Of a DNA stretch of 64,000 bases, positions 2,316 through 20,679 are shown piece after piece. A program made the translations under genes and the position numbers. Positions within the stretch are counted from its first letter, which is position 1. Each line of letters starts with the position of its first letter. The notes below the pieces were generated by a model. The model was not told where the DNA came from. It worked only from the letters and a program-made list of their open reading frames with translations, and ran no database searches. The stretch comes from Dehalococcoidia bacterium (GTDB taxonomy: Bacteria; Chloroflexota; Dehalococcoidia; Plut-88900): contig CBDBLV010000004.1 of the NCBI GenBank assembly GCA_965207225.1, forward strand, positions 352,001-416,000, given 5' to 3'.

Positions 2316-3361
2316 GCCCAGGCGAGGGCGTAAACATGGGTTGCTCCATCGGGTAAGGGGCTTTCCTCCCAACTAGAACCAGAATCTTCGCTTATATAAA
2401 CTTGACCCCGATAGGACGCGCAGGCCATGCGGCTGGGGTTTGAGTGGTCGAAGGCGATGCAGAAGATGGAGCTGGGGGGCTGCACCCCCATATTGATGGG
2501 ATTCCAGTTGTCGCCACCGTCCTCGCTTTTGTACAAGCCGCCGAGGCCTCCATCGAAGCCGTTGCCTGCGCCGACCCAGATGACGTTGGGGTCTGTCGGG
2601 TCTTCCTGGATGGCGCGGGTGTAGAGTCGGCCCGTGGCGTCGAGGGGAGTCAAGGGTACGTGACCCCAATGGTTACCGCCGTCGGGGCTGCGGAAGAGTC
2701 CTGCACCGGTGATGCTGAAGACCAGGTCCGGGCTCACACTGCTGGCGAGGATGCCGTGGGTGTCGACGGCCTGGTCAGTCTGGTACATGCCGTGGCTAAG
2801 ATTTTCCCATTGTAGACCCCCGTCCATGCTCCGCATCACGCCGCCGACCTCTATGGCGCCGTATAGGATTTGGGGGTCGAAGGGGCTGGCGCCCATCATC
2901 AGTACTCTCCTGGCGGGGTTGGCGCGGGGACGCATGGTTATCTCGGGGAAGCGCATGTCGGTTATGAGTCGGGTCCAAGTCTGTCCGCCGTCGGCGCTGG
3001 AGTGGACACTGGCCTCTTCGCCACCGGCGTACATGGTTGTGGGGTCATTGGGAGCGAATAGGATGGACCAGACTGGAAGCCCGCTCTCGACACCCGAAAC
3101 CCGTGTCCAGGAGTCACCCTGGTCTTCGCTGAGGTAGGGGCCGTCCTGGGTGCCGGCGTAGATTGTGTTGAGCCGGGAGGGATGGGGGGTGAGGGCCCTG
3201 ACTTCCGGGGCGTCGGGGAGTCCTGCGGCCGCGTTTTCCCAACCTCCGTTCCCGGGGTCGAGCCTGAACAGTCCGGAGTGCATTTCGTATCCCGGGGCGG
3301 TCTCACCTGCTAAACCCACGAATAGGCACGGATTCTTGCGATCACTACCATTCATTGCCAT
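2312..3361 (-). CDS. BNR/Asp-box repeat beta-propeller protein
   Basis: Repeated SxDxGxxW boxes (SEDQGDSW, SADGGQTW, SMDGGLQW, SPDGGNHW, SEDGGDNW, SEDSGSSW). Confidence 0.85.
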   Translation of the reverse strand: MAMNGSDRKNPCLFVGLAGETAPGYEMHSGLFRLDPGNGGWENAAAGLPDAPEVRALTPHPSRLNTIYAGTQDGPYLSEDQGDSWTRVSGVESGLPVWSILFAPNDPTTMYAGGEEASVHSSADGGQTWTRLITDMRFPEITMRPRANPARRVLMMGASPFDPQILYGAIEVGGVMRSMDGGLQWENLSHGMYQTDQAVDTHGILASSVSPDLVFSITGAGLFRSPDGGNHWGHVPLTPLDATGRLYTRAIQEDPTDPNVIWVGAGNGFDGGLGGLYKSEDGGDNWNPINMGVQPPSSIFCIAFDHSNPSRMACASYRGQVYISEDSGSSWEESPLPDGATHVYALAWA

Positions 3362-3407
3362 GACTACTCCTTTCCCCTGAGTTTGTATTTCCAGACAATT
3401 CGAAGAA

Positions 3408-4571
3408 CTATTTGATCACCAATTCATGGGGGACATGGGTGATAACCTCGACGCCGTCTTCATGGATTATCGACTGTTCTCCCAGAGACATGGTCAGCCT
3501 GGATTCCCGATCAACCAGGATCATGTGGGTAAAGAAGGTCATGTTAGCCTCCAGGACCATGGGGCTGTCGGCGACTATCATGGGGTGTTCCATCCAGGAA
3601 GGGGACCACGTAGCGCCCATGGTATAGCCACAGGCATTCAGAAGAGCGTGTCCGTAACCGTGCCTGGTGAAGGCGTCAGCGTGGGCCTTGAAGACCTCGC
3701 CGACTGTGTTGCCGGGCCTCAGGGCTGCTTGTACGGAGGTCAAGGCATCGAGGCAGGCCTCGTGCATGCGGCGGTGCCGATCGTCGATTTTGGGGCCGGT
3801 GAGCACGACTACCATGTTAGCGGCATGGTAGTGCCGGAACCCGCACCCGATTTCATAAGTGATCTGGTCGTTTTCGCCAATCGTGCCTCGGCCGGTTGCG
3901 TAGCGGACCAACATGGCCTTCTTCCCGGAGCCCAAGGGCCAACCGCCCGCCGGAGACTCTCCATCGGACCTGAATATAACGCTGTCCATCTCGGCGATGA
4001 TGTCGCCCTCGAAAGCACCGGGCTGGGTCAATTCGATGCCCTTGGCGAGGGAGCGGTCGATGATCTTGCCCGCCTGGCGCAGGTATTCGAGTTCCTGGGG
4101 GCTCTTGACAACCCGCATCAGCCGAATGAGGTCTGACATGTCGACCAGCTCGCAGTAGTCGCCGACAGCGGCATCCAAGTCTTGGCCCATTTTACTGGTG
4201 AGGCCGAAGGTGTCCCTCTGTACGCCAATTCTCTTGCCTTTCAGGTTGAATCGCTCCAGCACTTCCCTCACCGAGTTGAAAGGTGAATTCTCGAGGCTGT
4301 CAACCCAGAGGTGGACGTCGTCGCAAATGGAGGAGTACTCGATGCTGGGTACGTCTGCGGAGCGGGTGATGTGTGTCAGTTCGCCGTTGACGCCTATGTA
4401 CATGGCGTGAAAGATGACGAAGCCCTGGGTGTCGAGGCCGCAGAGCCAGTACATGTCCTCGATCTTGAAGAGGAGCATCCCGTCCAGGCCATTATCGGAG
4501 AGGGCGGCGCGGACTCGGGCCTGGCGGTCAGCGAATTCTTCCCTGGTGAAATGAATGTTTGGTTCCGGCAT
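3408..4571 (-). CDS. M24/creatinase-like (Xaa-Pro peptidase family) hydrolase, paralog 1
   Basis: Creatinase N-domain, RVVKSPQE linker, pita-bread C-domain; GGAGG RBS. Confidence 0.85.
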   Translation of the reverse strand: MPEPNIHFTREEFADRQARVRAALSDNGLDGMLLFKIEDMYWLCGLDTQGFVIFHAMYIGVNGELTHITRSADVPSIEYSSICDDVHLWVDSLENSPFNSVREVLERFNLKGKRIGVQRDTFGLTSKMGQDLDAAVGDYCELVDMSDLIRLMRVVKSPQELEYLRQAGKIIDRSLAKGIELTQPGAFEGDIIAEMDSVIFRSDGESPAGGWPLGSGKKAMLVRYATGRGTIGENDQITYEIGCGFRHYHAANMVVVLTGPKIDDRHRRMHEACLDALTSVQAALRPGNTVGEVFKAHADAFTRHGYGHALLNACGYTMGATWSPSWMEHPMIVADSPMVLEANMTFFTHMILVDRESRLTMSLGEQSIIHEDGVEVITHVPHELVIK

Positions 4572-4633
4572 TGTTCCTCCGAGGCGTTCGCTCCATGAAT
4601 GATAAGGAGCCCGACTAGCCTGTTAATCAGGAC

Positions 4634-5797
4634 CTAGTGAACAATCAAGTCGTGGGGGATGTGGGTAATGATCTCATTTGCTTTGTCGAGGACTATGACC
4701 TGCTCGCCAAGGGACATGGTGAGTCTCGATTCCCGGTCCACCAGGATCATGTGGGTGAAGAAGGTCATGTTGTGTTTAATTACGAAGGGGTTGTTTTTGA
4801 TTATGAGCGGCTGCTCCATCCAGGAGGGTGACCAGGTGGCTCCCATTGTGTAACCGCAGGCGTTGAGCAGTGCGTGACCGAAACCGTGTTTAGTGAATTC
4901 CCTGGCGTGGGCATCGAAGACTTCTCCGATGGTGTTGCCGGGCCGCAGGGCATCCTGAACGGCTGACAGGGCATGCAGGCAGGCCTCGTGCATCCTGCGG
5001 TGACGATCATCCACCTGGGGCCCGGTAAGCACGGCAATCATGTTGGCCGCGTGATAGTGGCGGTAACCACACCCGATTTCGTAGGTGACCTGGTCGTTCT
5101 CGCCGACCGTGTTCCGACCGGTGGCATAGCGTACAAGCATGGCCTTCTTGCCGGAGCCGACGGGCCAGTGGGCCGCGGGAGGATCGCCCCCGTTGCGCAG
5201 GATGATGCCGTACATCTCGGCCCAGATGTCGCCTTCGTAGGCCCCGGGCCAAGTCATTTCGATGGCCTTGACCATGACCTGGTCCATTATCCTTCCGGCC
5301 TGCCGCACATACTCAAGCTCCTGGGTACTCTTTACGACACGCATGAGACGAATCATATCCGAGGCGTCTACGAGCTCACAGTAATCCCCAACCGCGGCAG
5401 CCAACTCTTCACCCATCCTGCTTGAGAGGCCATAGGTGTCGCGCTGAACACCGATCCGCTTGCCCTTCAGATTGAACCGCTCCAGGACTTCGCGGACGGC
5501 ATTGAAGGGGGAGTTGTCGAGGCTGTCCACCCAGAGATGAACATCATCGCAGACCGACGAGTATTCGATGCTGGCGACGTCGGCGGAGCGGGTGATGTGA
5601 GTGAGTTCGCCGTTGACGCCGATGTACAGGGCATGGAAGATCTTCCAGCCCTGGGTGTCGAGGCCGGTTAGCCAGTACATGTCCTCTATCTTGAACAAGA
5701 GCATGCCTTCGAGGCTTTGATTCGACAACTCGGCGCGGACTCGAGACTGGCGTTCGGCGAACTCTTCCCTTGAAAAGTAGATTGTAGGTTCAGGCAT
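4634..5797 (-). CDS. M24/creatinase-like hydrolase, paralog 2
   Basis: Same length (387 aa) and colinear with 3408-4571. Confidence 0.85.
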   Translation of the reverse strand: MPEPTIYFSREEFAERQSRVRAELSNQSLEGMLLFKIEDMYWLTGLDTQGWKIFHALYIGVNGELTHITRSADVASIEYSSVCDDVHLWVDSLDNSPFNAVREVLERFNLKGKRIGVQRDTYGLSSRMGEELAAAVGDYCELVDASDMIRLMRVVKSTQELEYVRQAGRIMDQVMVKAIEMTWPGAYEGDIWAEMYGIILRNGGDPPAAHWPVGSGKKAMLVRYATGRNTVGENDQVTYEIGCGYRHYHAANMIAVLTGPQVDDRHRRMHEACLHALSAVQDALRPGNTIGEVFDAHAREFTKHGFGHALLNACGYTMGATWSPSWMEQPLIIKNNPFVIKHNMTFFTHMILVDRESRLTMSLGEQVIVLDKANEIITHIPHDLIVH

Positions 5798-16552: not shown

Positions 16553-17305
16553 CTAGGGTTCGCGGATCTTGGTACGGGCGTCGTGGGGGTAGGTGTTGGT
16601 CTCGATCATGCGGGCCTTGACTGCGGTGCGGAGGAGCAGCAGCTCCTCGTCGGAGATTTGGGGTGTCATGGGTGCTTGCTCGGCGGTGCCCTTGATCGAG
16701 AGGTCGAAGCCCGTGTTGTCCCTCACTTCTTCCAGGGTGTGACCCTGATGCACCGAGGCCAGTTCGAGGTGTCCCGACTCCCGGGAGAGCTCCATGCGGG
16801 CCATGGGGGTTACAACTATCACCTCCCTGTTGCGTCGGGAGAATCCCTCGGGGGAAGAGGCGGAAGCGGAGACGTAATCTACTTTTTCGACGAAGGTGCG
16901 ACGGTCGTGGCGGGTGCGGAATAGGACGACTTTCGGGACGGCGTAGTAGAGGAGGCCGGAGCCGTACTGGCCGGGCATCCTGACGTCCGGGGCGTCGGGG
17001 TCTCCGATGAGCTGGAGGTTGAAGTTGGCCTCTCGGTCTATCTCTATACCGCTTAAGAAGAAAAGGTCGAGCTTGCCGCGCTGGGCCAGGTAATGAAAGT
17101 CTTTGCCGCCCACGAAGGGGTTGTAGTAGTCGCTGTCCAGGATTATGAACTCACCGTTGGGGGCGTGGGAGGCCTCGGCGAGGAGGAGGGCGCAGGCGGG
17201 GATGAAGGAGAGGGCGCCGCAGGCAGAGGTCTCCCAATCCCGCACCTCCCGGGACAGGAGGACGGCCATGAATTCTTCGAAGGCGCAGTCGGGAGAGAGG
17301 GTCAC
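16553..17305 (-). CDS. CoA-transferase family I-fold subunit B (GctB/IpdB-like)
   Basis: DLFFLSGIEID...N, RMPG, H..RTFVEKVDYVS, NTGF; GTG start overlaps alpha-subunit TAG. Confidence 0.8.
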   Translation of the reverse strand: MTLSPDCAFEEFMAVLLSREVRDWETSACGALSFIPACALLLAEASHAPNGEFIILDSDYYNPFVGGKDFHYLAQRGKLDLFFLSGIEIDREANFNLQLIGDPDAPDVRMPGQYGSGLLYYAVPKVVLFRTRHDRRTFVEKVDYVSASASSPEGFSRRNREVIVVTPMARMELSRESGHLELASVHQGHTLEEVRDNTGFDLSIKGTAEQAPMTPQISDEELLLLRTAVKARMIETNTYPHDARTKIREP

Positions 17306-18174
17306 TAGCCTACAGCGGCGGGGATTTCCACGCCCAGGCCCCTGGCCCGGCAGTAACTCTCATGGTCGTTGAAGGCGAATACCTCGGCGGCGAGGTAGTC
17401 CTGGAAGGCGTCATCGGATGAGGAAGCTTCCAAGTACTTCTTCATCTCGTCAACGTCCATGGCGTAATGGCCGGGGCACGCGCTGGGGAAGGCGCCAAAG
17501 GGGGCGTGGGCCACGGCTTTGACGTGAATGGCCGGGATGTAGGTACCGGAAGGGTCGTCGGGGGAGACCTGATCGACTATCTCTTCGACAGTGACGATAA
17601 CCCGGTCCGAGGCTTGAGCCAGCATCAGGGCTTCTCCGCCCTTCTTGACGAGCACGTTGCCTCGCCTGTCAGCCTTGGTGCCGTGGAAGAGGGCCACGTC
17701 GGGGTTGATGGCCTTGGCCATAACTATCGGCTCGGAGGGGTTGAAAGGGTTGGGGGCGATGGTGAAGTCATCTCGTTGGCTAATCACGTCGCTGTTGGCG
17801 TAGCCGAGGGTCGGGACGAAGGGGATGCCCATTGATCCAGCCTGGACCATGCTGTAGAGAACGCCTCAGGTATTGTCCTTCATCTTGACCCGGCCCTCCT
17901 TCTGGAGGCGCAGGTAGTTGGGGGCGACCCGGGCGAAGGGTTGGAAGTTGAAGTCGCAGGTCTCAACGGTGGCGGTACGGCCGGCCCCGACGAGGAAGTC
18001 GAGGTTCATGGAAGCGCCGACCACGCCGACAGTGTTGAGCTCCGTGGTCTCGCCGCGGACGATCTCGCGGAGGAGGGCCATGGGGGTATTGTCCAGGCCA
18101 CCCATCATGATCACCTTGTCACCGGTGCGTACCAGGCTGGCGGCTTGTTCCAGGGTTACTAGTTTCTCTCTCAT
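17305..18174 (-). CDS. CoA-transferase family I-fold subunit A (GctA/IpdA-like), 289 aa if TGA 17866-17868 is read as selenocysteine
   Basis: ORFs 17866-18174 and 17305-17850 share one frame: ...AAG GAC AAT ACC TGA GGC GTT CTC TAC AGC ATG GTC...; joined protein is full length; SECIS-like hairpin follows. Confidence 0.8.
17830..17851 (-). promoter_or_regulatory. Candidate bacterial SECIS hairpin
   Basis: RNA CAUGGUCCA-GGC-UGGAUCAAUG: 9-bp stem with one bulged A; G-first loop 24 nt after UGA. Confidence 0.6.
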
Positions 18175-18224
18175 CTGTGCTTCATTCCCTTCATCGAACC
18201 CAGAGCCTGTACAACGTTGGACTC

Positions 18225-18253
18225 AGGTTATATTTCGACACTGTGGGTGTCAA
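18225..18253 (-). promoter_or_regulatory. Sigma70-type promoter of CoA-transferase operon
   Basis: TTGACA-17-TAACCT. Confidence 0.55.
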
Positions 18254-18282
18254 GGCAGGAGTGGCGGAGGTCATGGGCACCT

Positions 18283-20679
18283 TTAGGTTGGGGTGCGGGC
18301 GCGGGCGCCGCCGAGTCGGGCCTGCACCCGACGCCAGACCATCCTGAATTCACCCTTCTCCCACATGACGAGCACCTGCGGGCCGATCAGCATGGAGCTG
18401 TAGGTACCGGCGAGGACACCTATAAGCAGCACCAGTATGAAGGGCAGGAGGGTCCCGCCGCCGAACAGGACTAGGGCGAGCAGAGTAAACAGTGTTGTGA
18501 GGCTGGTGTTGACTGAGCGGCCCATGGTCTCAAGCAGGCTGTTGTTAACCGTGACCTCGAAGGGGTCGCCGGTGCGCCTTAGCATGTTCTCCCTGATGCG
18601 GTCGAAGACGACGATGGTGTTGTTAATGCTGTAGCCGATGACGGCAAGGATAGCCGTGATGACCATGGTGTTGAGCTCGACGCCAAAGACCTTGCCGAGC
18701 AGGGAGAAGAGGCCGAGGACGATCAGAACGTCATGGGCGAGGGCAAAGACGGCCGCGGCGCTGTAGCGGAAGAAATGGGGCATCTTGCGGAAAGCCCACG
18801 CTATGTACAGGAATATACCGATGATGGCGAAGAACACGGCCAGAGCGGCGTTGCGCACCATTTCGGCGGCGACGATGGGAGAAACGAAGTCCACCTCGAA
18901 GCGGTCTATGCTGGTGGGGCCGAAACGTTGGGCGAAGGCCTGCTGAATGAGCTGGCTATCGGAAGGCCCGACATTGCCATCCTGGTCAATCTCGCCCTGG
19001 CCTAGGGTCTCGGTGCGGATGAGGAAGGCGTTGGTCTCCAGGGCCTGGACGATGGCGTCGCCGTGGCCCAGTTCCTCCAACTCTTGCCGCACAGCTGTTA
19101 CCGTTACTTCTCCACCTGTGAGCCGGTCGCGGTCGGCGGGGTTGATGAAGCGGACCTCGATGGTGGAGCCGCTGGAGAACTCGATGCCGGTGTTGAAAGC
19201 CGGGGGGAATATGAGAGACACGATACCCGGAAGTATCACGGCACCGGAGATTGCAAAGTACCAGAACCTCCTGTTGACGACGTTGATGCGGCGGCCGGGG
19301 GTGGGGTCCTGGGGGGTGTCGGCCAGGGTCTTGGGCACGCCGAATACTCCGGGCTTCTCCTGGGCCCAGGAGCCGACGAAGAATCTCAGGAAGCTGCGGG
19401 TGACGAACATGGCGGAGAACATGCTGGTGACGATGCCAATGGCGAGGGTGATGGCGAATCCGGTGACCAGGGGGGTGCCCAGCTTGTCGCCGAACCACCA
19501 GAGAATGGCGCAGGTTATGAGGGTGGATACGTTGCTGTCGCGGATGGCCACCCAGGCCCGGTTGAATCCGGCTTCGATAGCGACGCGGAGGCTACGGCCG
19601 GCGCGGAGCTCCTCTTTCAGACGTTCGAAGATGAGGACATTCGCGTCGACGGCCATGCCGATGGACAGGATGAACCCGGCGATGCCGGAGAGGGTAAGGG
19701 TGACGGGGAGCAGCTTGAAGGTGGACAGGACCACGAGGCCGTAGACGATGAGGGCGCCGGCGGAAAGGACGCCCGGGAGCCTGTAGTAGACCATCAGGAA
19801 ACCCAGGACAAGGAGCAATCCCACTATGCCCGCCACCATGCTCTTGTTGACCGACTCGGCGCCGAGGGTGGCATCGACGTCCTGCTCTCGGATGAGCTGG
19901 ATAGGAATCGGCAAGGCACCGGCGTTGAGCTGGATGGCGAGGTCATCAGCCTGTTCGATGCTAAGACCGGTGATTACACCGTTTCTGGATATGACCGCCT
20001 GGACCACGGGGTCGGAAATCAAAAGGCCGTCCAGGTGGATTCCCAGGGGCTGGTTGAGGAGCCTGCTGGTGATGTTTTCGAACATCCTGGCGCCTTCGCT
20101 GTTGAACTCGAAGGCGACCTGGGGAAGGTTGGTTGCAGGGTCTAGCACGACCTGGGAATTCGGCAGCATGTATTCGCCTGTGAGGGGGACCAGCTGGCCG
20201 GTATCGTTTGGAGCTAGGACGGGGTCCCAGATGATGCTGCCGGTCTGGGGGTCGGTGACGAAGGTGCCATCTTCCTGTCGCCGCTGCTCTCGGAAGTCGA
20301 GCTGGGCGGTGCGGCCGATAAGGCTCTTGGCCCGCTCCACGTCCCGGATACCGGGGATCTGTACCATGATCCGGTCGTCGCCAACTCTTTGGACTATGGG
20401 CTCGGAGACTCCGAAGGCGTCGACGCGGTTGCGGATGATGCTGATAACGCCCTCGACCTGGGAGTCGGTGACGGCTTCACCTTCGGGGGGTTGGGCCTCA
20501 TAGACGAGGTGGGTGCCGCCCCGGATGTCGAGTCCCTGTCGGAAGCCGACCCTGTCGATGCCGGGCGTCTTGTCGGGGAGCAGGACCACGAGACCGGCTA
20601 TGAATATGAGGCCGATCATGATCAGACAAAGGGTGTTCCCCTTCGGGATAAGCCTGTATAGCCTGAGTAGACCTAGCAA
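18283..20679 (-). CDS. secDF: Fused protein translocase SecD/SecF
   Basis: GLDIRGG, RVDAFGVSEP, GMAVDANVLIFER, GIEFSSG, GYSINNTIVVFDRIRE. Confidence 0.93.
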   Translation of the reverse strand: MLGLLRLYRLIPKGNTLCLIMIGLIFIAGLVVLLPDKTPGIDRVGFRQGLDIRGGTHLVYEAQPPEGEAVTDSQVEGVISIIRNRVDAFGVSEPIVQRVGDDRIMVQIPGIRDVERAKSLIGRTAQLDFREQRRQEDGTFVTDPQTGSIIWDPVLAPNDTGQLVPLTGEYMLPNSQVVLDPATNLPQVAFEFNSEGARMFENITSRLLNQPLGIHLDGLLISDPVVQAVISRNGVITGLSIEQADDLAIQLNAGALPIPIQLIREQDVDATLGAESVNKSMVAGIVGLLLVLGFLMVYYRLPGVLSAGALIVYGLVVLSTFKLLPVTLTLSGIAGFILSIGMAVDANVLIFERLKEELRAGRSLRVAIEAGFNRAWVAIRDSNVSTLITCAILWWFGDKLGTPLVTGFAITLAIGIVTSMFSAMFVTRSFLRFFVGSWAQEKPGVFGVPKTLADTPQDPTPGRRINVVNRRFWYFAISGAVILPGIVSLIFPPAFNTGIEFSSGSTIEVRFINPADRDRLTGGEVTVTAVRQELEELGHGDAIVQALETNAFLIRTETLGQGEIDQDGNVGPSDSQLIQQAFAQRFGPTSIDRFEVDFVSPIVAAEMVRNAALAVFFAIIGIFLYIAWAFRKMPHFFRYSAAAVFALAHDVLIVLGLFSLLGKVFGVELNTMVITAILAVIGYSINNTIVVFDRIRENMLRRTGDPFEVTVNNSLLETMGRSVNTSLTTLFTLLALVLFGGGTLLPFILVLLIGVLAGTYSSMLIGPQVLVMWEKGEFRMVWRRVQARLGGARARTPT

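Follow-up and report, generated by a model that had tools for sequence, protein, structure and literature searches.

Can a reading frame that is interrupted by a TGA codon within a conserved enzyme domain still encode a complete protein? The question is raised by a locus in a Dehalococcoidia bacterium of the Chloroflexota, for which a window of 64,000 nucleotides was analysed (positions 352,001 to 416,000 of contig CBDBLV010000004.1, assembly GCA_965207225.1). Two pieces of an alpha subunit resembling those of class I CoA-transferases lie here on the minus strand, and an original prediction, made without database searches, had proposed that they form a single selenoprotein gene. The best explanation that we can offer, and one that we hold to be highly probable, is that the interrupted gene encodes the selenoprotein subunit of a GctAB/IpdAB-like heterodimer with selenocysteine (Sec) at the column of IpdA Glu105, whereby selenium incorporation, the substrate and the reaction are inferred.

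The subunit A gene and its operon

Translation of the window gave subunit A as a single frame of 289 codons plus a TAG stop (17305..18174, minus strand), which starts with ATG at 18174, ends with TAG at 17307-17305, and contains no frameshift or second stop. Its sole in-frame TGA is codon 103 (17868-17866, minus strand), in the context KDNT-TGA-GVLYSMVQAGSMGIPF, and read-through yields 289 amino acids, reproducing the predicted frame broken by a single TGA. TGA also has an ordinary stop role in the host genome, where it ends 486 of 1469 long frames. The pN/pS ratio was 0.09-0.13 upstream of the TGA and 0.14-0.19 downstream, and judged by these values both halves of subunit A are under purifying selection.

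The proposed CoA-transferase fold was borne out as well. Pfam CoA_trans matched residues 7-223 at 2.1e-15, the PDB matches were GctA (1.5e-30), AibA (2.5e-22) and IpdA (9e-16), and an AF2 model with a pLDDT of 91.5 superposed on GctA (1poi_A) with a TM score of 0.85 and on IpdA (6co6_A) with 0.84. In this model, residue 103 heads a helix spanning residues 103-115.

Subunit B (16553..17305, minus strand) is a GctB/AibB/IpdB-like beta subunit of 250 amino acids. Its GTG start (17305-17303) and the TAG stop of subunit A overlap as TAGTG, as anticipated, and coupling of this type was found in 13 of the 17 listed genomic homologs. Pfam CoA_trans matched subunit B at 7.3e-09, and its PDB matches were GctB (1.6e-11 with the single sequence), AibB and IpdB. 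A profile of 25 B subunits matched GctB at 6e-69 and aligned Leu56, located in 'FIILDS', to the catalytic Glu of GctB ('IIV-E-SG') and to Cys56 of AibB, in agreement with the earlier remark that IILDS stands where an E-S-G motif is expected. The promoter, which had been called intact, is less secure. The hexamers TTGACA-17 nt-TAACCT can be read in the 108-nt gap after secDF (18225..18253, minus strand), but a scan for consensus promoters returned 0 sites, TAACCT fits at 3 of 6 positions, and a promoter and terminator scan gave nothing at threshold, so that we list it only as a weak possibility. Rfam detected only two tRNAs over the whole window. The neighbours in the window are secDF, a Leu/Phe/Val dehydrogenase, a nuclease and GlyRS, and across the loci compared no conserved neighbour other than subunit B was found. 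Genes for SDR, enoyl-CoA hydratase, 3-hydroxyacyl-CoA dehydrogenase, thiolase-like and family III CoA-transferase proteins are scattered near some of the Sec, Cys or Glu forms, but not consistently enough to identify a pathway.

Active-site register and possible chemistry

Column 103 aligns exactly with IpdA Glu105, which we take to be the catalytic residue of that enzyme, in line with the expectation that residue 103 would sit at a catalytic position. Two deposited IpdA chains differ in this column (E/A), the title of PDB entry 6coj reads 'IpdAB E105A', and a catalytic role of Glu105 was reportedly described by Crowe et al. in 2018. The IpdA motif 'MDEGM' that the original prediction had named for this region aligns in register, and the homolog motif DATCPA that it gave was about right, the observed form being 'DSTCPA' (in P0075 and P0082).

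In glutaconate CoA-transferase (GCT) the catalytic residue is Glu54-beta, and IpdAB has Gly57-beta in place of this glutamate (PMC5380842). A comparison of 87 A/B pairs related this position to the residue at column 103 of subunit A. The beta catalytic Glu was absent from all pairs in which the A residue was Sec (0/38), Cys (0/16) or Glu (0/13), and present in 15 of the 16 pairs in which it was His or Asn. With Leu56, subunit B of the window thus meets neither the beta-Glu (ExG motif) criterion for a class I CoA-transferase nor the criterion of an AibAB-type beta Cys. The presence of Sec at the Glu105 column, only where the beta-Glu has been lost, points to a substitute catalytic residue.

The known systems share different parts of this arrangement. 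IpdAB, the hydrolase that cleaves the ring of COCHEA-CoA in actinobacterial steroid catabolism (PDB 6co6, 6co9, 6coj, 6con), likewise pairs an alpha with a beta subunit in the class I CoA-transferase fold (TM 0.84), it also lacks the beta catalytic Glu (Gly57-beta versus Leu56 here), and its key residue is on the alpha subunit in the same column (E105 versus U103). It differs in having Glu instead of Sec or Cys, and a general-base Glu need not form covalent acyl intermediates, whereas a selenolate can. The identity to IpdA is only 23%, with subunit A of the window being closer to GctA in sequence, and neither the window nor the other loci have a KstR2-type steroid-pathway gene context. The steroid-catabolic neighbours echA20, ipdC, ipdF and fadA6 were not found at the window, and the other loci were heterogeneous, with sporadic SDR, ECH and CaiB-type genes. 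GctAB, the archetypal class I enzyme (PDB 1poi), is the enzyme that both subunits match best in sequence and fold, and it has the same two-gene layout. However, GctB carries Glu54-beta ('IIVESG') where subunit B has Leu, and GctA has Gln at column 103 where subunit A has Sec, differences that make a Glu-anhydride / Glu-CoA thioester mechanism impossible. AibA/AibB, a 3-methylglutaconyl-CoA decarboxylase (PDB 5mzw-5n03), has the same fold (TM 0.80) and is a non-transferase member in which the thiol of Cys56B replaces the catalytic Glu. There, it is the beta subunit that bears the thiol, in the column of Glu54, and AibA has Gly at column 103, whereas here the beta subunit has Leu56 and the chalcogen residue is on alpha. 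To our knowledge, AibB is not a selenoprotein.

Computation supports the integrity of the gene, the conservation of the TGA column, the Sec/Cys exchange, the SECIS element, the presence of the Sec machinery, the fold and the register of the active site, whereas selenium insertion is inferred. In the mechanism that we propose, UGA-103 would be decoded as Sec by SelB and tRNA-Sec, directed by a SECIS element in the coding region with a 7-bp stem and a GGC loop from 24 nt after the UGA. Together with subunit B, whose translation is coupled to its own, subunit A would make up a heterodimer that resembles GctAB and IpdAB and has the class I CoA-transferase fold, but lacks the beta glutamate on which all true class I transferases rely. 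In place of this glutamate, the alpha subunit of the complex would have Sec, or Cys in relatives, where IpdAB has Glu105, at the N-terminus of a helix. We infer that such an enzyme acts on an acyl-CoA thioester, not as a Glu-anhydride CoA-transferase, and that the selenolate may be the catalytic nucleophile or an acid/base. One option is a thiolase-like attack to give an acyl-selenoester, which would then be hydrolysed or transferred; another is protonation of an enolate, as has been proposed for Cys56B of AibAB. A Sec-dependent acyl-CoA enzyme, and not a canonical transferase, is the likely product, with its substrate and chemistry inferred. It is possible, although we would not call it probable, that Sec103 is the nucleophile of a new reaction class in this fold, forming an acyl-selenoester by attack on an acyl-CoA or beta-ketoacyl-CoA, in which case the enzyme may be a thiolase-/retro-Claisen-like C-C hydrolase or an acyl transferase. 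If this were true, it would be a rare non-redox selenoenzyme, and, next to the transferases with a beta-Glu and the IpdAB hydrolases with an alpha-Glu, the enzymes with Sec or Cys on alpha would make up a third mechanistic branch, one that is abundant in SAR202-type and other Chloroflexota.

A selenoprotein in which Sec103 has a redox or regulatory function, for instance by forming a selenenylsulfide with CoA-SH or with a partner Cys, or by protecting the site, instead of acyl-transfer or acid-base catalysis, also has to be considered. The presumed substrate bears a thiol (CoA), and a recent review describes nearly all catalogued prokaryotic selenoproteins as redox proteins, many with a thioredoxin-like fold, and most of its 119 families as having redox motifs (PMC13188914). 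Yet no conserved CxxU/UxxC motif or second invariant Cys was found among the invariant columns of the subunit A alignment, which argues against a redox role while leaving the chemistry open, and the residue occupies the IpdA Glu105 column only where the beta-Glu has been lost. We therefore regard such a function as unlikely.

According to the original prediction, this fold was not known as a selenoprotein family, and the sources at hand agree with that, as far as they go. No PF01144 entry is present in the May 2026 table of 119 prokaryotic selenoprotein families (PMC13188914; its supplementary tables, which possibly list the family, were outside our scope). Nor does 'CoA' occur in the main text of the BSepDB paper, the part of that source covered here (PMC13326102; supplementary tables again outside scope). 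A search of the full-text literature for a CoA-transferase selenoprotein found none, and the supplementary tables of earlier large screens might list the family. With Sec in place of the catalytic carboxylate of a CoA-transferase-fold enzyme, the known selenoproteins would come to include one that acts on acyl thioesters, and the natural Sec/Cys/Glu series would allow the benefit of selenium in nucleophilic or acid-base catalysis to be examined.

TGA and cysteine at column 103 among relatives

The TGA was present at column 103 in all 17 TGA-bearing genomic homologs, which are 31-97% identical to the window gene. The order was sampled with 12 genomes including the source genome, and orthologs were recovered from 10 of the 11 others. 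Each of these 10, like the window gene, contains exactly one TGA, and the genomes span three genera, so the codon is not unique to this assembly; uniqueness would have refuted the prediction. Six distant homologs (31-39% identity) from five further genomes of the phylum sample also have one TGA each. A single-protein scan of genome contigs found only 8 genomes, all of the same genus, and did not cover the reach of the family beyond Chloroflexota. Column 103 was covered by 78 metagenome loci, with 40 TGA, 16 Cys, 9 Glu, 5 His, 4 Gly and 4 Asn, and the 38 top-scoring loci all had TGA. Cys was found in 12 of 27 full-length proteins and in the nearest TGA-free relatives. Pairs of TGA and Cys in this column with conservation on both sides (pN/pS 0.09-0.19) are what had been proposed as support, and homologs with Trp, Arg or Gln as refutation; the homologs carry TGA or Cys. 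In the tree, one clade of 64 rows, with a support of 99, is made up solely of Sec (43) and Cys (21) forms, with the Cys orthologs P0013 and P0014 nested among the Sec forms, and at least 5-8 switches between Sec and Cys are required.

In public records subunit A appears as "hypothetical protein" pieces of about 102 and about 180 residues. C-terminal fragments of 169-189 amino acids make up 71 of the 120 database matches listed, the 24 that were aligned begin 3, 6 or 12 residues past column 103, two N-terminal fragments of 102 amino acids are also in the databases, and no dedicated NCBIfam model for the family was found. Since gene callers annotate exactly such pieces, and an ATG lies 6 codons past the TGA in the window, the TGA could be a true stop in a split gene, so that subunit B would assemble with an alpha subunit consisting of two separate chains (1-102 and about 109-289). 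However, the interrupting codon was TGA in 57 of 57 loci and never TAA or TAG, always at the Cys column of the relatives. The next Met is not conserved, being located at +3, +6 or +12 codons (only +12 in the 'SQAQAGSMG' group), and a covarying hairpin follows at the SECIS position, all of which makes separate polypeptides very improbable. Instead, the gene almost certainly encodes a selenoprotein subunit A that occurs widely in Chloroflexota but has been mis-annotated in pieces. It is common in Chloroflexota recovered from many metagenomes, and because it is stored as 'hypothetical protein' fragments, selenoproteome counts and metabolic reconstructions of these lineages miss it.

The downstream hairpin and the selenocysteine machinery

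The SECIS-type hairpin (17833..17849, minus strand) has the sequence UGGUCCA[GGC]UGGAUCA (17849-17833), with a 7-bp stem formed by nucleotides 20-26 and 30-36 from the U of the UGA and an apical GGC loop at 17842-17840. The bacterial SECIS model places a G-containing apical loop about 16-37 nt after the UGA, and the G-first loop, with its G 24 nt after the U of the UGA, falls inside this range. The predicted hairpin is thus present, but by itself it is no more stable than expected by chance (z = 0.61; an equal or better fold was obtained for 146 of 200 shuffles), and its significance rests only on conservation and covariation. These were assessed with RNAalifold on 55 distinct TGA forms. The hairpin cells were paired in 95.6% of cases against 80.4% in shuffles, a level reached by none of 500 shuffles, 6 of the 7 pairs showed two-sided changes, and slid controls were 18-45% paired. 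The stem is thus kept with compensatory changes in TGA-containing homologs, as a SECIS element should be. The GGC loop was found in 51 of the 55 forms. Out of 7 pairs, Sec forms retained 6.7, Cys forms 4.25 and other forms 3.3, although the Cys-form control is confounded, because the peptide encoded by the hairpin codons differs in these forms as well. Synonymous sites covary too: the Ala codon in the hairpin is GCT in 52 of 55 TGA forms, against 12.9% in genomic use, and the choice between GGA and GGG covaries perfectly with the partner codon.

The host genome contains all four of selA (556 bits), selB (327 bits), selC (tRNA-Sec, 66.4 bits; ARAGORN call SeC(tca)) and selD (387 bits, with its own TGA), the absence of which would have refuted the prediction, as well as selenoprotein genes other than subunit A. 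selA was also detected in 10 of 10 other genomes with the TGA form that were tested, which discriminates little, since 308 of 401 genomes of the phylum sample have it. The selD gene has an 8-bp stem with a GUG loop at nt 31, and two grdB genes have 7-bp stems with a GGG or GGC loop at nt 22. Like subunit A, these genes contain an in-frame UGA and have homologs with Cys, and a hairpin whose apical loop begins with G follows about 20-30 nt downstream.

No RNA or proteome data turned up for the locus, so that there is no direct evidence of its expression or of selenium insertion. With hairpins after stop codons being able to stimulate read-through in general, the UGA might be recoded to something other than Sec, by near-cognate read-through (Trp, Cys or Arg), or the hairpin might be a programmed pause that sets the ratio of truncated to full-length protein. 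The repeated Sec/Cys exchange on the tree is a signature of Sec, however, the same genome holds the full Sec machinery together with selenoprotein genes that have similar hairpins, and the loop position fits the SECIS range, leaving little room for this reading.

A stop within a conserved domain, in a metagenome-assembled genome with 8.3% contamination, resembles a fresh pseudogene or an assembly error in a decaying CoA-transferase gene, but this can practically be dismissed given that 10 other genomes, from three genera, and more distant lineages have the same TGA, that both halves are under purifying selection with many synonymous changes, and that the frame is intact. Judged from these comparisons, the TGA is neither an error nor the mark of a pseudogene, and decoding as Sec remains the preferred reading. 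In place of the proposed check of reads for a sequencing error, Logan contigs of four runs were compared: an identical contig was found in run X1, probably the source sample, and an independent contig of about 92% likeness, which comes from a different study and a sponge metagenome, covers the full stretch with the gene and has no change at 17866-17868 among the differences listed, which is no proof, as the list left out 248 rows.

A crude scan also pointed to another candidate that is not catalogued, a luciferase-like monooxygenase with Sec137, and these genomes may contain further unrecognised selenoprotein families.

A reading frame interrupted by a single TGA

The gene for the CoA-transferase-fold subunit A runs on the minus strand from an ATG at 18174 to a TAG at 17307-17305, as a single frame whose sole interruption is the TGA at 17868-17866. 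Translation confirmed that the two alpha-subunit ORFs of the original prediction are one frame, and reading through the TGA gives 289 residues, with residue 103 in the context KDNT-U-GVLYSMVQAGSMGIPF. The predicted coupling to subunit B (17305-16553, minus strand, 250 codons) is also present, the GTG start of B overlapping the TAG of A (TAGTG). Pfam CoA_trans matched A (2.1e-15) and B (7.3e-09), and in the NCBIfam scan no model reached its cut-off for A (best TIGR02429, 31 bits versus a cut-off of 128.5), nor was there any match for B. The window covers 352001-416000 of contig C4, and the assembly comprises 4.03 Mb in 5 contigs (completeness 92.3%, contamination 8.3%). Downstream of the pair lies a Leu/Phe/Val-type dehydrogenase gene on the opposite strand, and directly upstream secDF, a fusion of secD and secF in one 798-aa ORF (18283-20679, minus strand). 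The 108-nt gap between secDF and A, which share a strand, holds just one weak promoter-like site.

In a search of the order (12 genomes, including the source genome), the gene was found in 11, with exactly one TGA per copy, and these copies aligned from query residue 1 (spans 1-289 or 1-280, identity 64-97%). For the phylum, 401 genomes were sampled evenly; 124 of them contained a homolog at E <= 1e-20, and one TGA was present in 8 matches from 7 genomes, the window's own counted. Mapped onto the query, all 17 TGA-bearing loci have the TGA on column 103 and none elsewhere in the aligned part, and distant homologs (31-39% identity) also carry it there (…DST-U-PV…, …EHT-U-AS…, …EHA-U-IS…). From a metagenome scan, 80 loci were retained, 78 of which cover column 103, with TGA in 40, Cys (TGT/TGC) in 16, Glu in 9, His in 5, Gly in 4 and Asn in 4; the top-scoring 38 have TGA throughout. 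Because the kept loci are biased toward close relatives, these counts are not natural frequencies. In 27 full-length database homologs, the alignment gives Cys in 12, Glu in 11, Gly in 3 and Asn in 1. Homologs do show the Cys and TGA at this column that the original prediction named as support for selenocysteine (Sec).

One alternative is that the TGA is a true stop and that A is made as two pieces. Among 120 database matches listed, 71 are proteins of 169-189 residues covering only the C-terminal part; 24 aligned C-terminal fragments start at the first Met, 3, 6 or 12 residues past column 103, and two N-terminal fragments of 102 residues were found. NCBI names the fragment records 'hypothetical protein [Chloroflexota bacterium]' and a Cys form 'CoA transferase subunit A'. 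However, the break is TGA in every case, never TAA or TAG, which makes a split gene very unlikely. Against four same-genus orthologs, pN/pS was 0.09-0.13 before the TGA (codons 1-102) and 0.14-0.19 after it (codons 104-289), with 26-80 synonymous differences per part. Taken together with the conservation of the TGA column, these values exclude a sequencing error and, being low on both sides, a pseudogene. A genetic code change is excluded as well, since TGA terminates 486 of the 1469 long stop-to-stop frames of the genome and is thus an ordinary stop that has not been globally reassigned.

SECIS hairpin and selenocysteine machinery

We aligned 55 distinct TGA-form sequences without gaps, starting at the UGA. 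RNAalifold returned a single consensus helix, nt 20-26 paired with nt 30-36, around a 3-nt loop that is GGC in 51 of the 55. Standard pairs fill 95.6% of helix cells versus 80.4% in column shuffles (0 of 500 reached the observed value), both-sided changes occur in six of the seven helix pairs (52 cells), and shifting the 3' arm by 1-3 nt lowers pairing to 18-45%. The mean number of pairs kept, out of 7, is 6.7 in TGA forms, 4.25 in Cys forms and 3.3 in other forms, a control that is partly confounded because the Cys-form peptide over the hairpin codons also differs. Stronger evidence comes from synonymous sites. Of the 55 sequences, 52 use GCT for the Ala that lies across the loop and the closing pair, a codon that accounts for only 12.9% of Ala codons in the long frames of the genome. 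Also, the Gly codon is GGG wherever the partner codon is GCC (12 sequences) and nowhere else, and it is GGA in the 38 with GTC, ATC or CTC. Folded by itself, the window hairpin does not exceed shuffled sequence in stability (z = 0.61). The hairpin noticed originally is present, and its importance, not knowable from a single sequence, rests on conservation and covariation.

The source genome contains the machinery whose absence would have refuted the proposal: tRNA-Sec (66.4 bits with Rfam; ARAGORN call SeC, anticodon tca), selA (556 bits) and selB (327 bits), both above cut-offs, and selD (387 bits), which has its own in-frame TGA. Although all 10 of the other TGA-form genomes examined have selA above cut-off, this merely fails to refute the proposal, since selA is also found in 308 of the 401 phylum genomes. 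Two GrdB-family (PF07355) genes on contig C5, at 1360052-1361380 (plus strand; 1e-133) and 902848-904176 (minus strand; 1e-136), each contain a TGA in frame, followed by a 7-bp hairpin whose triloop, GGG or GGC, lies at nt 22, and in selD the stem is 8 bp long and its GUG loop begins at nt 31; the architecture matches that in A. The two grdB genes suggest glycine/sarcosine/betaine-reductase-type metabolism for this MAG of the Dehalococcoidia.

The accessible part of a May 2026 review (PMC13188914), with a table of 119 prokaryotic selenoprotein families and subfamilies, lists no CoA-transferase or PF01144 family, and BSepDB (PMC13326102), which according to its available main text rests on previously reported families, nowhere mentions 'CoA' in that text. 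No report of a CoA-transferase selenoprotein was found in full-text literature, supplementary files not being covered. We consider it highly probable that A represents a real, conserved family of selenoproteins that has apparently not been described.

Active-site position and pairing with subunit B

Among solved structures, the best matches of A were GctA of glutaconate CoA-transferase (1.5e-30), AibA of 3-methylglutaconyl-CoA decarboxylase (2.5e-22) and IpdA of the COCHEA-CoA ring-cleaving hydrolase (9e-16). An AF2 model from a 19-row alignment (pLDDT 91.5, pTM 0.89) matched 1poi_A (TM 0.85), IpdA (0.84) and AibA (0.80), and in it residue 103 opens helix 103-115, right after strand 97-100. 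HMMER aligned this residue with the only site that varies between the deposited IpdA chains (6co6_A has Glu, 6coj_A has Ala), and PDB 6coj is titled 'IpdAB E105A COCHEA-CoA complex'; column 103 therefore corresponds to IpdA Glu105, the register proposed originally. A has the predicted Sec here, whereas GctA has Gln, AibA Gly and IpdA Glu105. The latter was reportedly identified as catalytic by Crowe and colleagues in 2018.

A profile of 25 B sequences aligned to GctB at 6e-69, with Leu56 of the window ('FIILDS') opposite the Glu in 'IIVESG' of GctB, where an E-S-G motif had been expected, and opposite the mutated AibB Cys56. According to the available portions of the respective papers, the essential transferase residue of GCT is Glu54-beta, with Gly57-beta in IpdAB (PMC5380842), and Cys56B of AibAB is a probable general acid (PMC7756340). 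We tabulated 87 A/B pairs from the loci, the related sequences not being independent. At the catalytic Glu column, B has Leu (29), Ile (4), Arg (2), Thr (2) or Asp (1) when A has Sec (38 pairs); Gly (8), Val (4), Ile (3) or Ala (1) with Cys (16 pairs); Ala (7) or Gly (6) with Glu (13 pairs); Glu (7) or Pro (1) with His (8 pairs); Glu in all 8 pairs with Asn; and Tyr (3) or Glu (1) with Gly (4 pairs). Hence, the classical beta nucleophile is absent in every pair with Sec, Cys or Glu in A, a pattern that recurs in separate clades. A FastTree of 211 rows, column 103 left out, contains a 64-row clade (support 99) with nothing but Sec (43) and Cys (21), as well as other clades in which Cys and Sec are mixed; Sec requires a minimum of 8 changes on the tree, 5 of them forced by starred branches. 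Such repeated exchange of Sec and Cys is typical of selenoprotein families. One metagenome contig, L142, carries tandem pairs, a canonical one (A 1253-2188, B 2172-2945) with ExG-Glu in beta, and a second, IpdAB-like one (3001-4728) with alpha-Glu and no beta-Glu, a natural side-by-side case of both mechanistic types.

Without the beta-Glu, the Glu-anhydride/Glu-CoA mechanism of class I transferases cannot run. We infer that a selenolate at the helix N-terminus, in the IpdA Glu105 position, would be the residue that performs catalysis in an acyl-CoA enzyme other than a transferase, either as a nucleophile forming an acyl-selenoester or through acid/base action on an enolate. Among the invariant columns of the family there is neither a second conserved Cys nor a CxxU motif, which argues against a dithiol-type redox role, and the gene neighbourhoods of the loci gave no substrate clue. 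On this inference, the family would also add a new mechanistic branch, Sec/Cys-alpha, to the CoA-transferase fold, with substrate and chemistry still open.

Other selenoprotein candidates and related DNA

Outside the window, a luciferase-like monooxygenase gene (contig C4, 149668-150750, plus strand) has an in-frame TGA at codon 137 ('LAV-U-TGG'), across which a single Pfam Bac_luciferase match (1.8e-49) runs, and a hairpin, cggcccgGUAcgggccg, beginning at nt 21. Across the genus, 9 genomes retain this single TGA, the source genome counted (identity 76-100%), and of the gene's paralogs in the source genome one has Cys and another Gly at this column. PF00296 is absent from the table of PMC13188914, as far as available, and this gene is therefore a second possible new family. 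A DsbA-like gene (C4, 260681-261301, minus strand; 'DYL-U-PYV'), fitting the DxxUP type in the accessible part of that review, and a thioredoxin-like/AhpC-TSA gene with NHL repeats (C5, 1690519-1692000, plus strand), whose TGA lies within a CxxC-like motif, both resemble selenoprotein types already known. The selenoproteome is probably larger, because the scan was crude, with 20 of 46 candidates checked.

Parts of 16553-18300 are contained in runs labelled sponge metagenome (X10, X13, X16, X17, X20 and X21); X10 was compared along the sequence, and the other five rest on small word shares. One sponge run from a different study has a contig about 92% alike over the entire operon. Relatives of the source organism may be sponge-associated.
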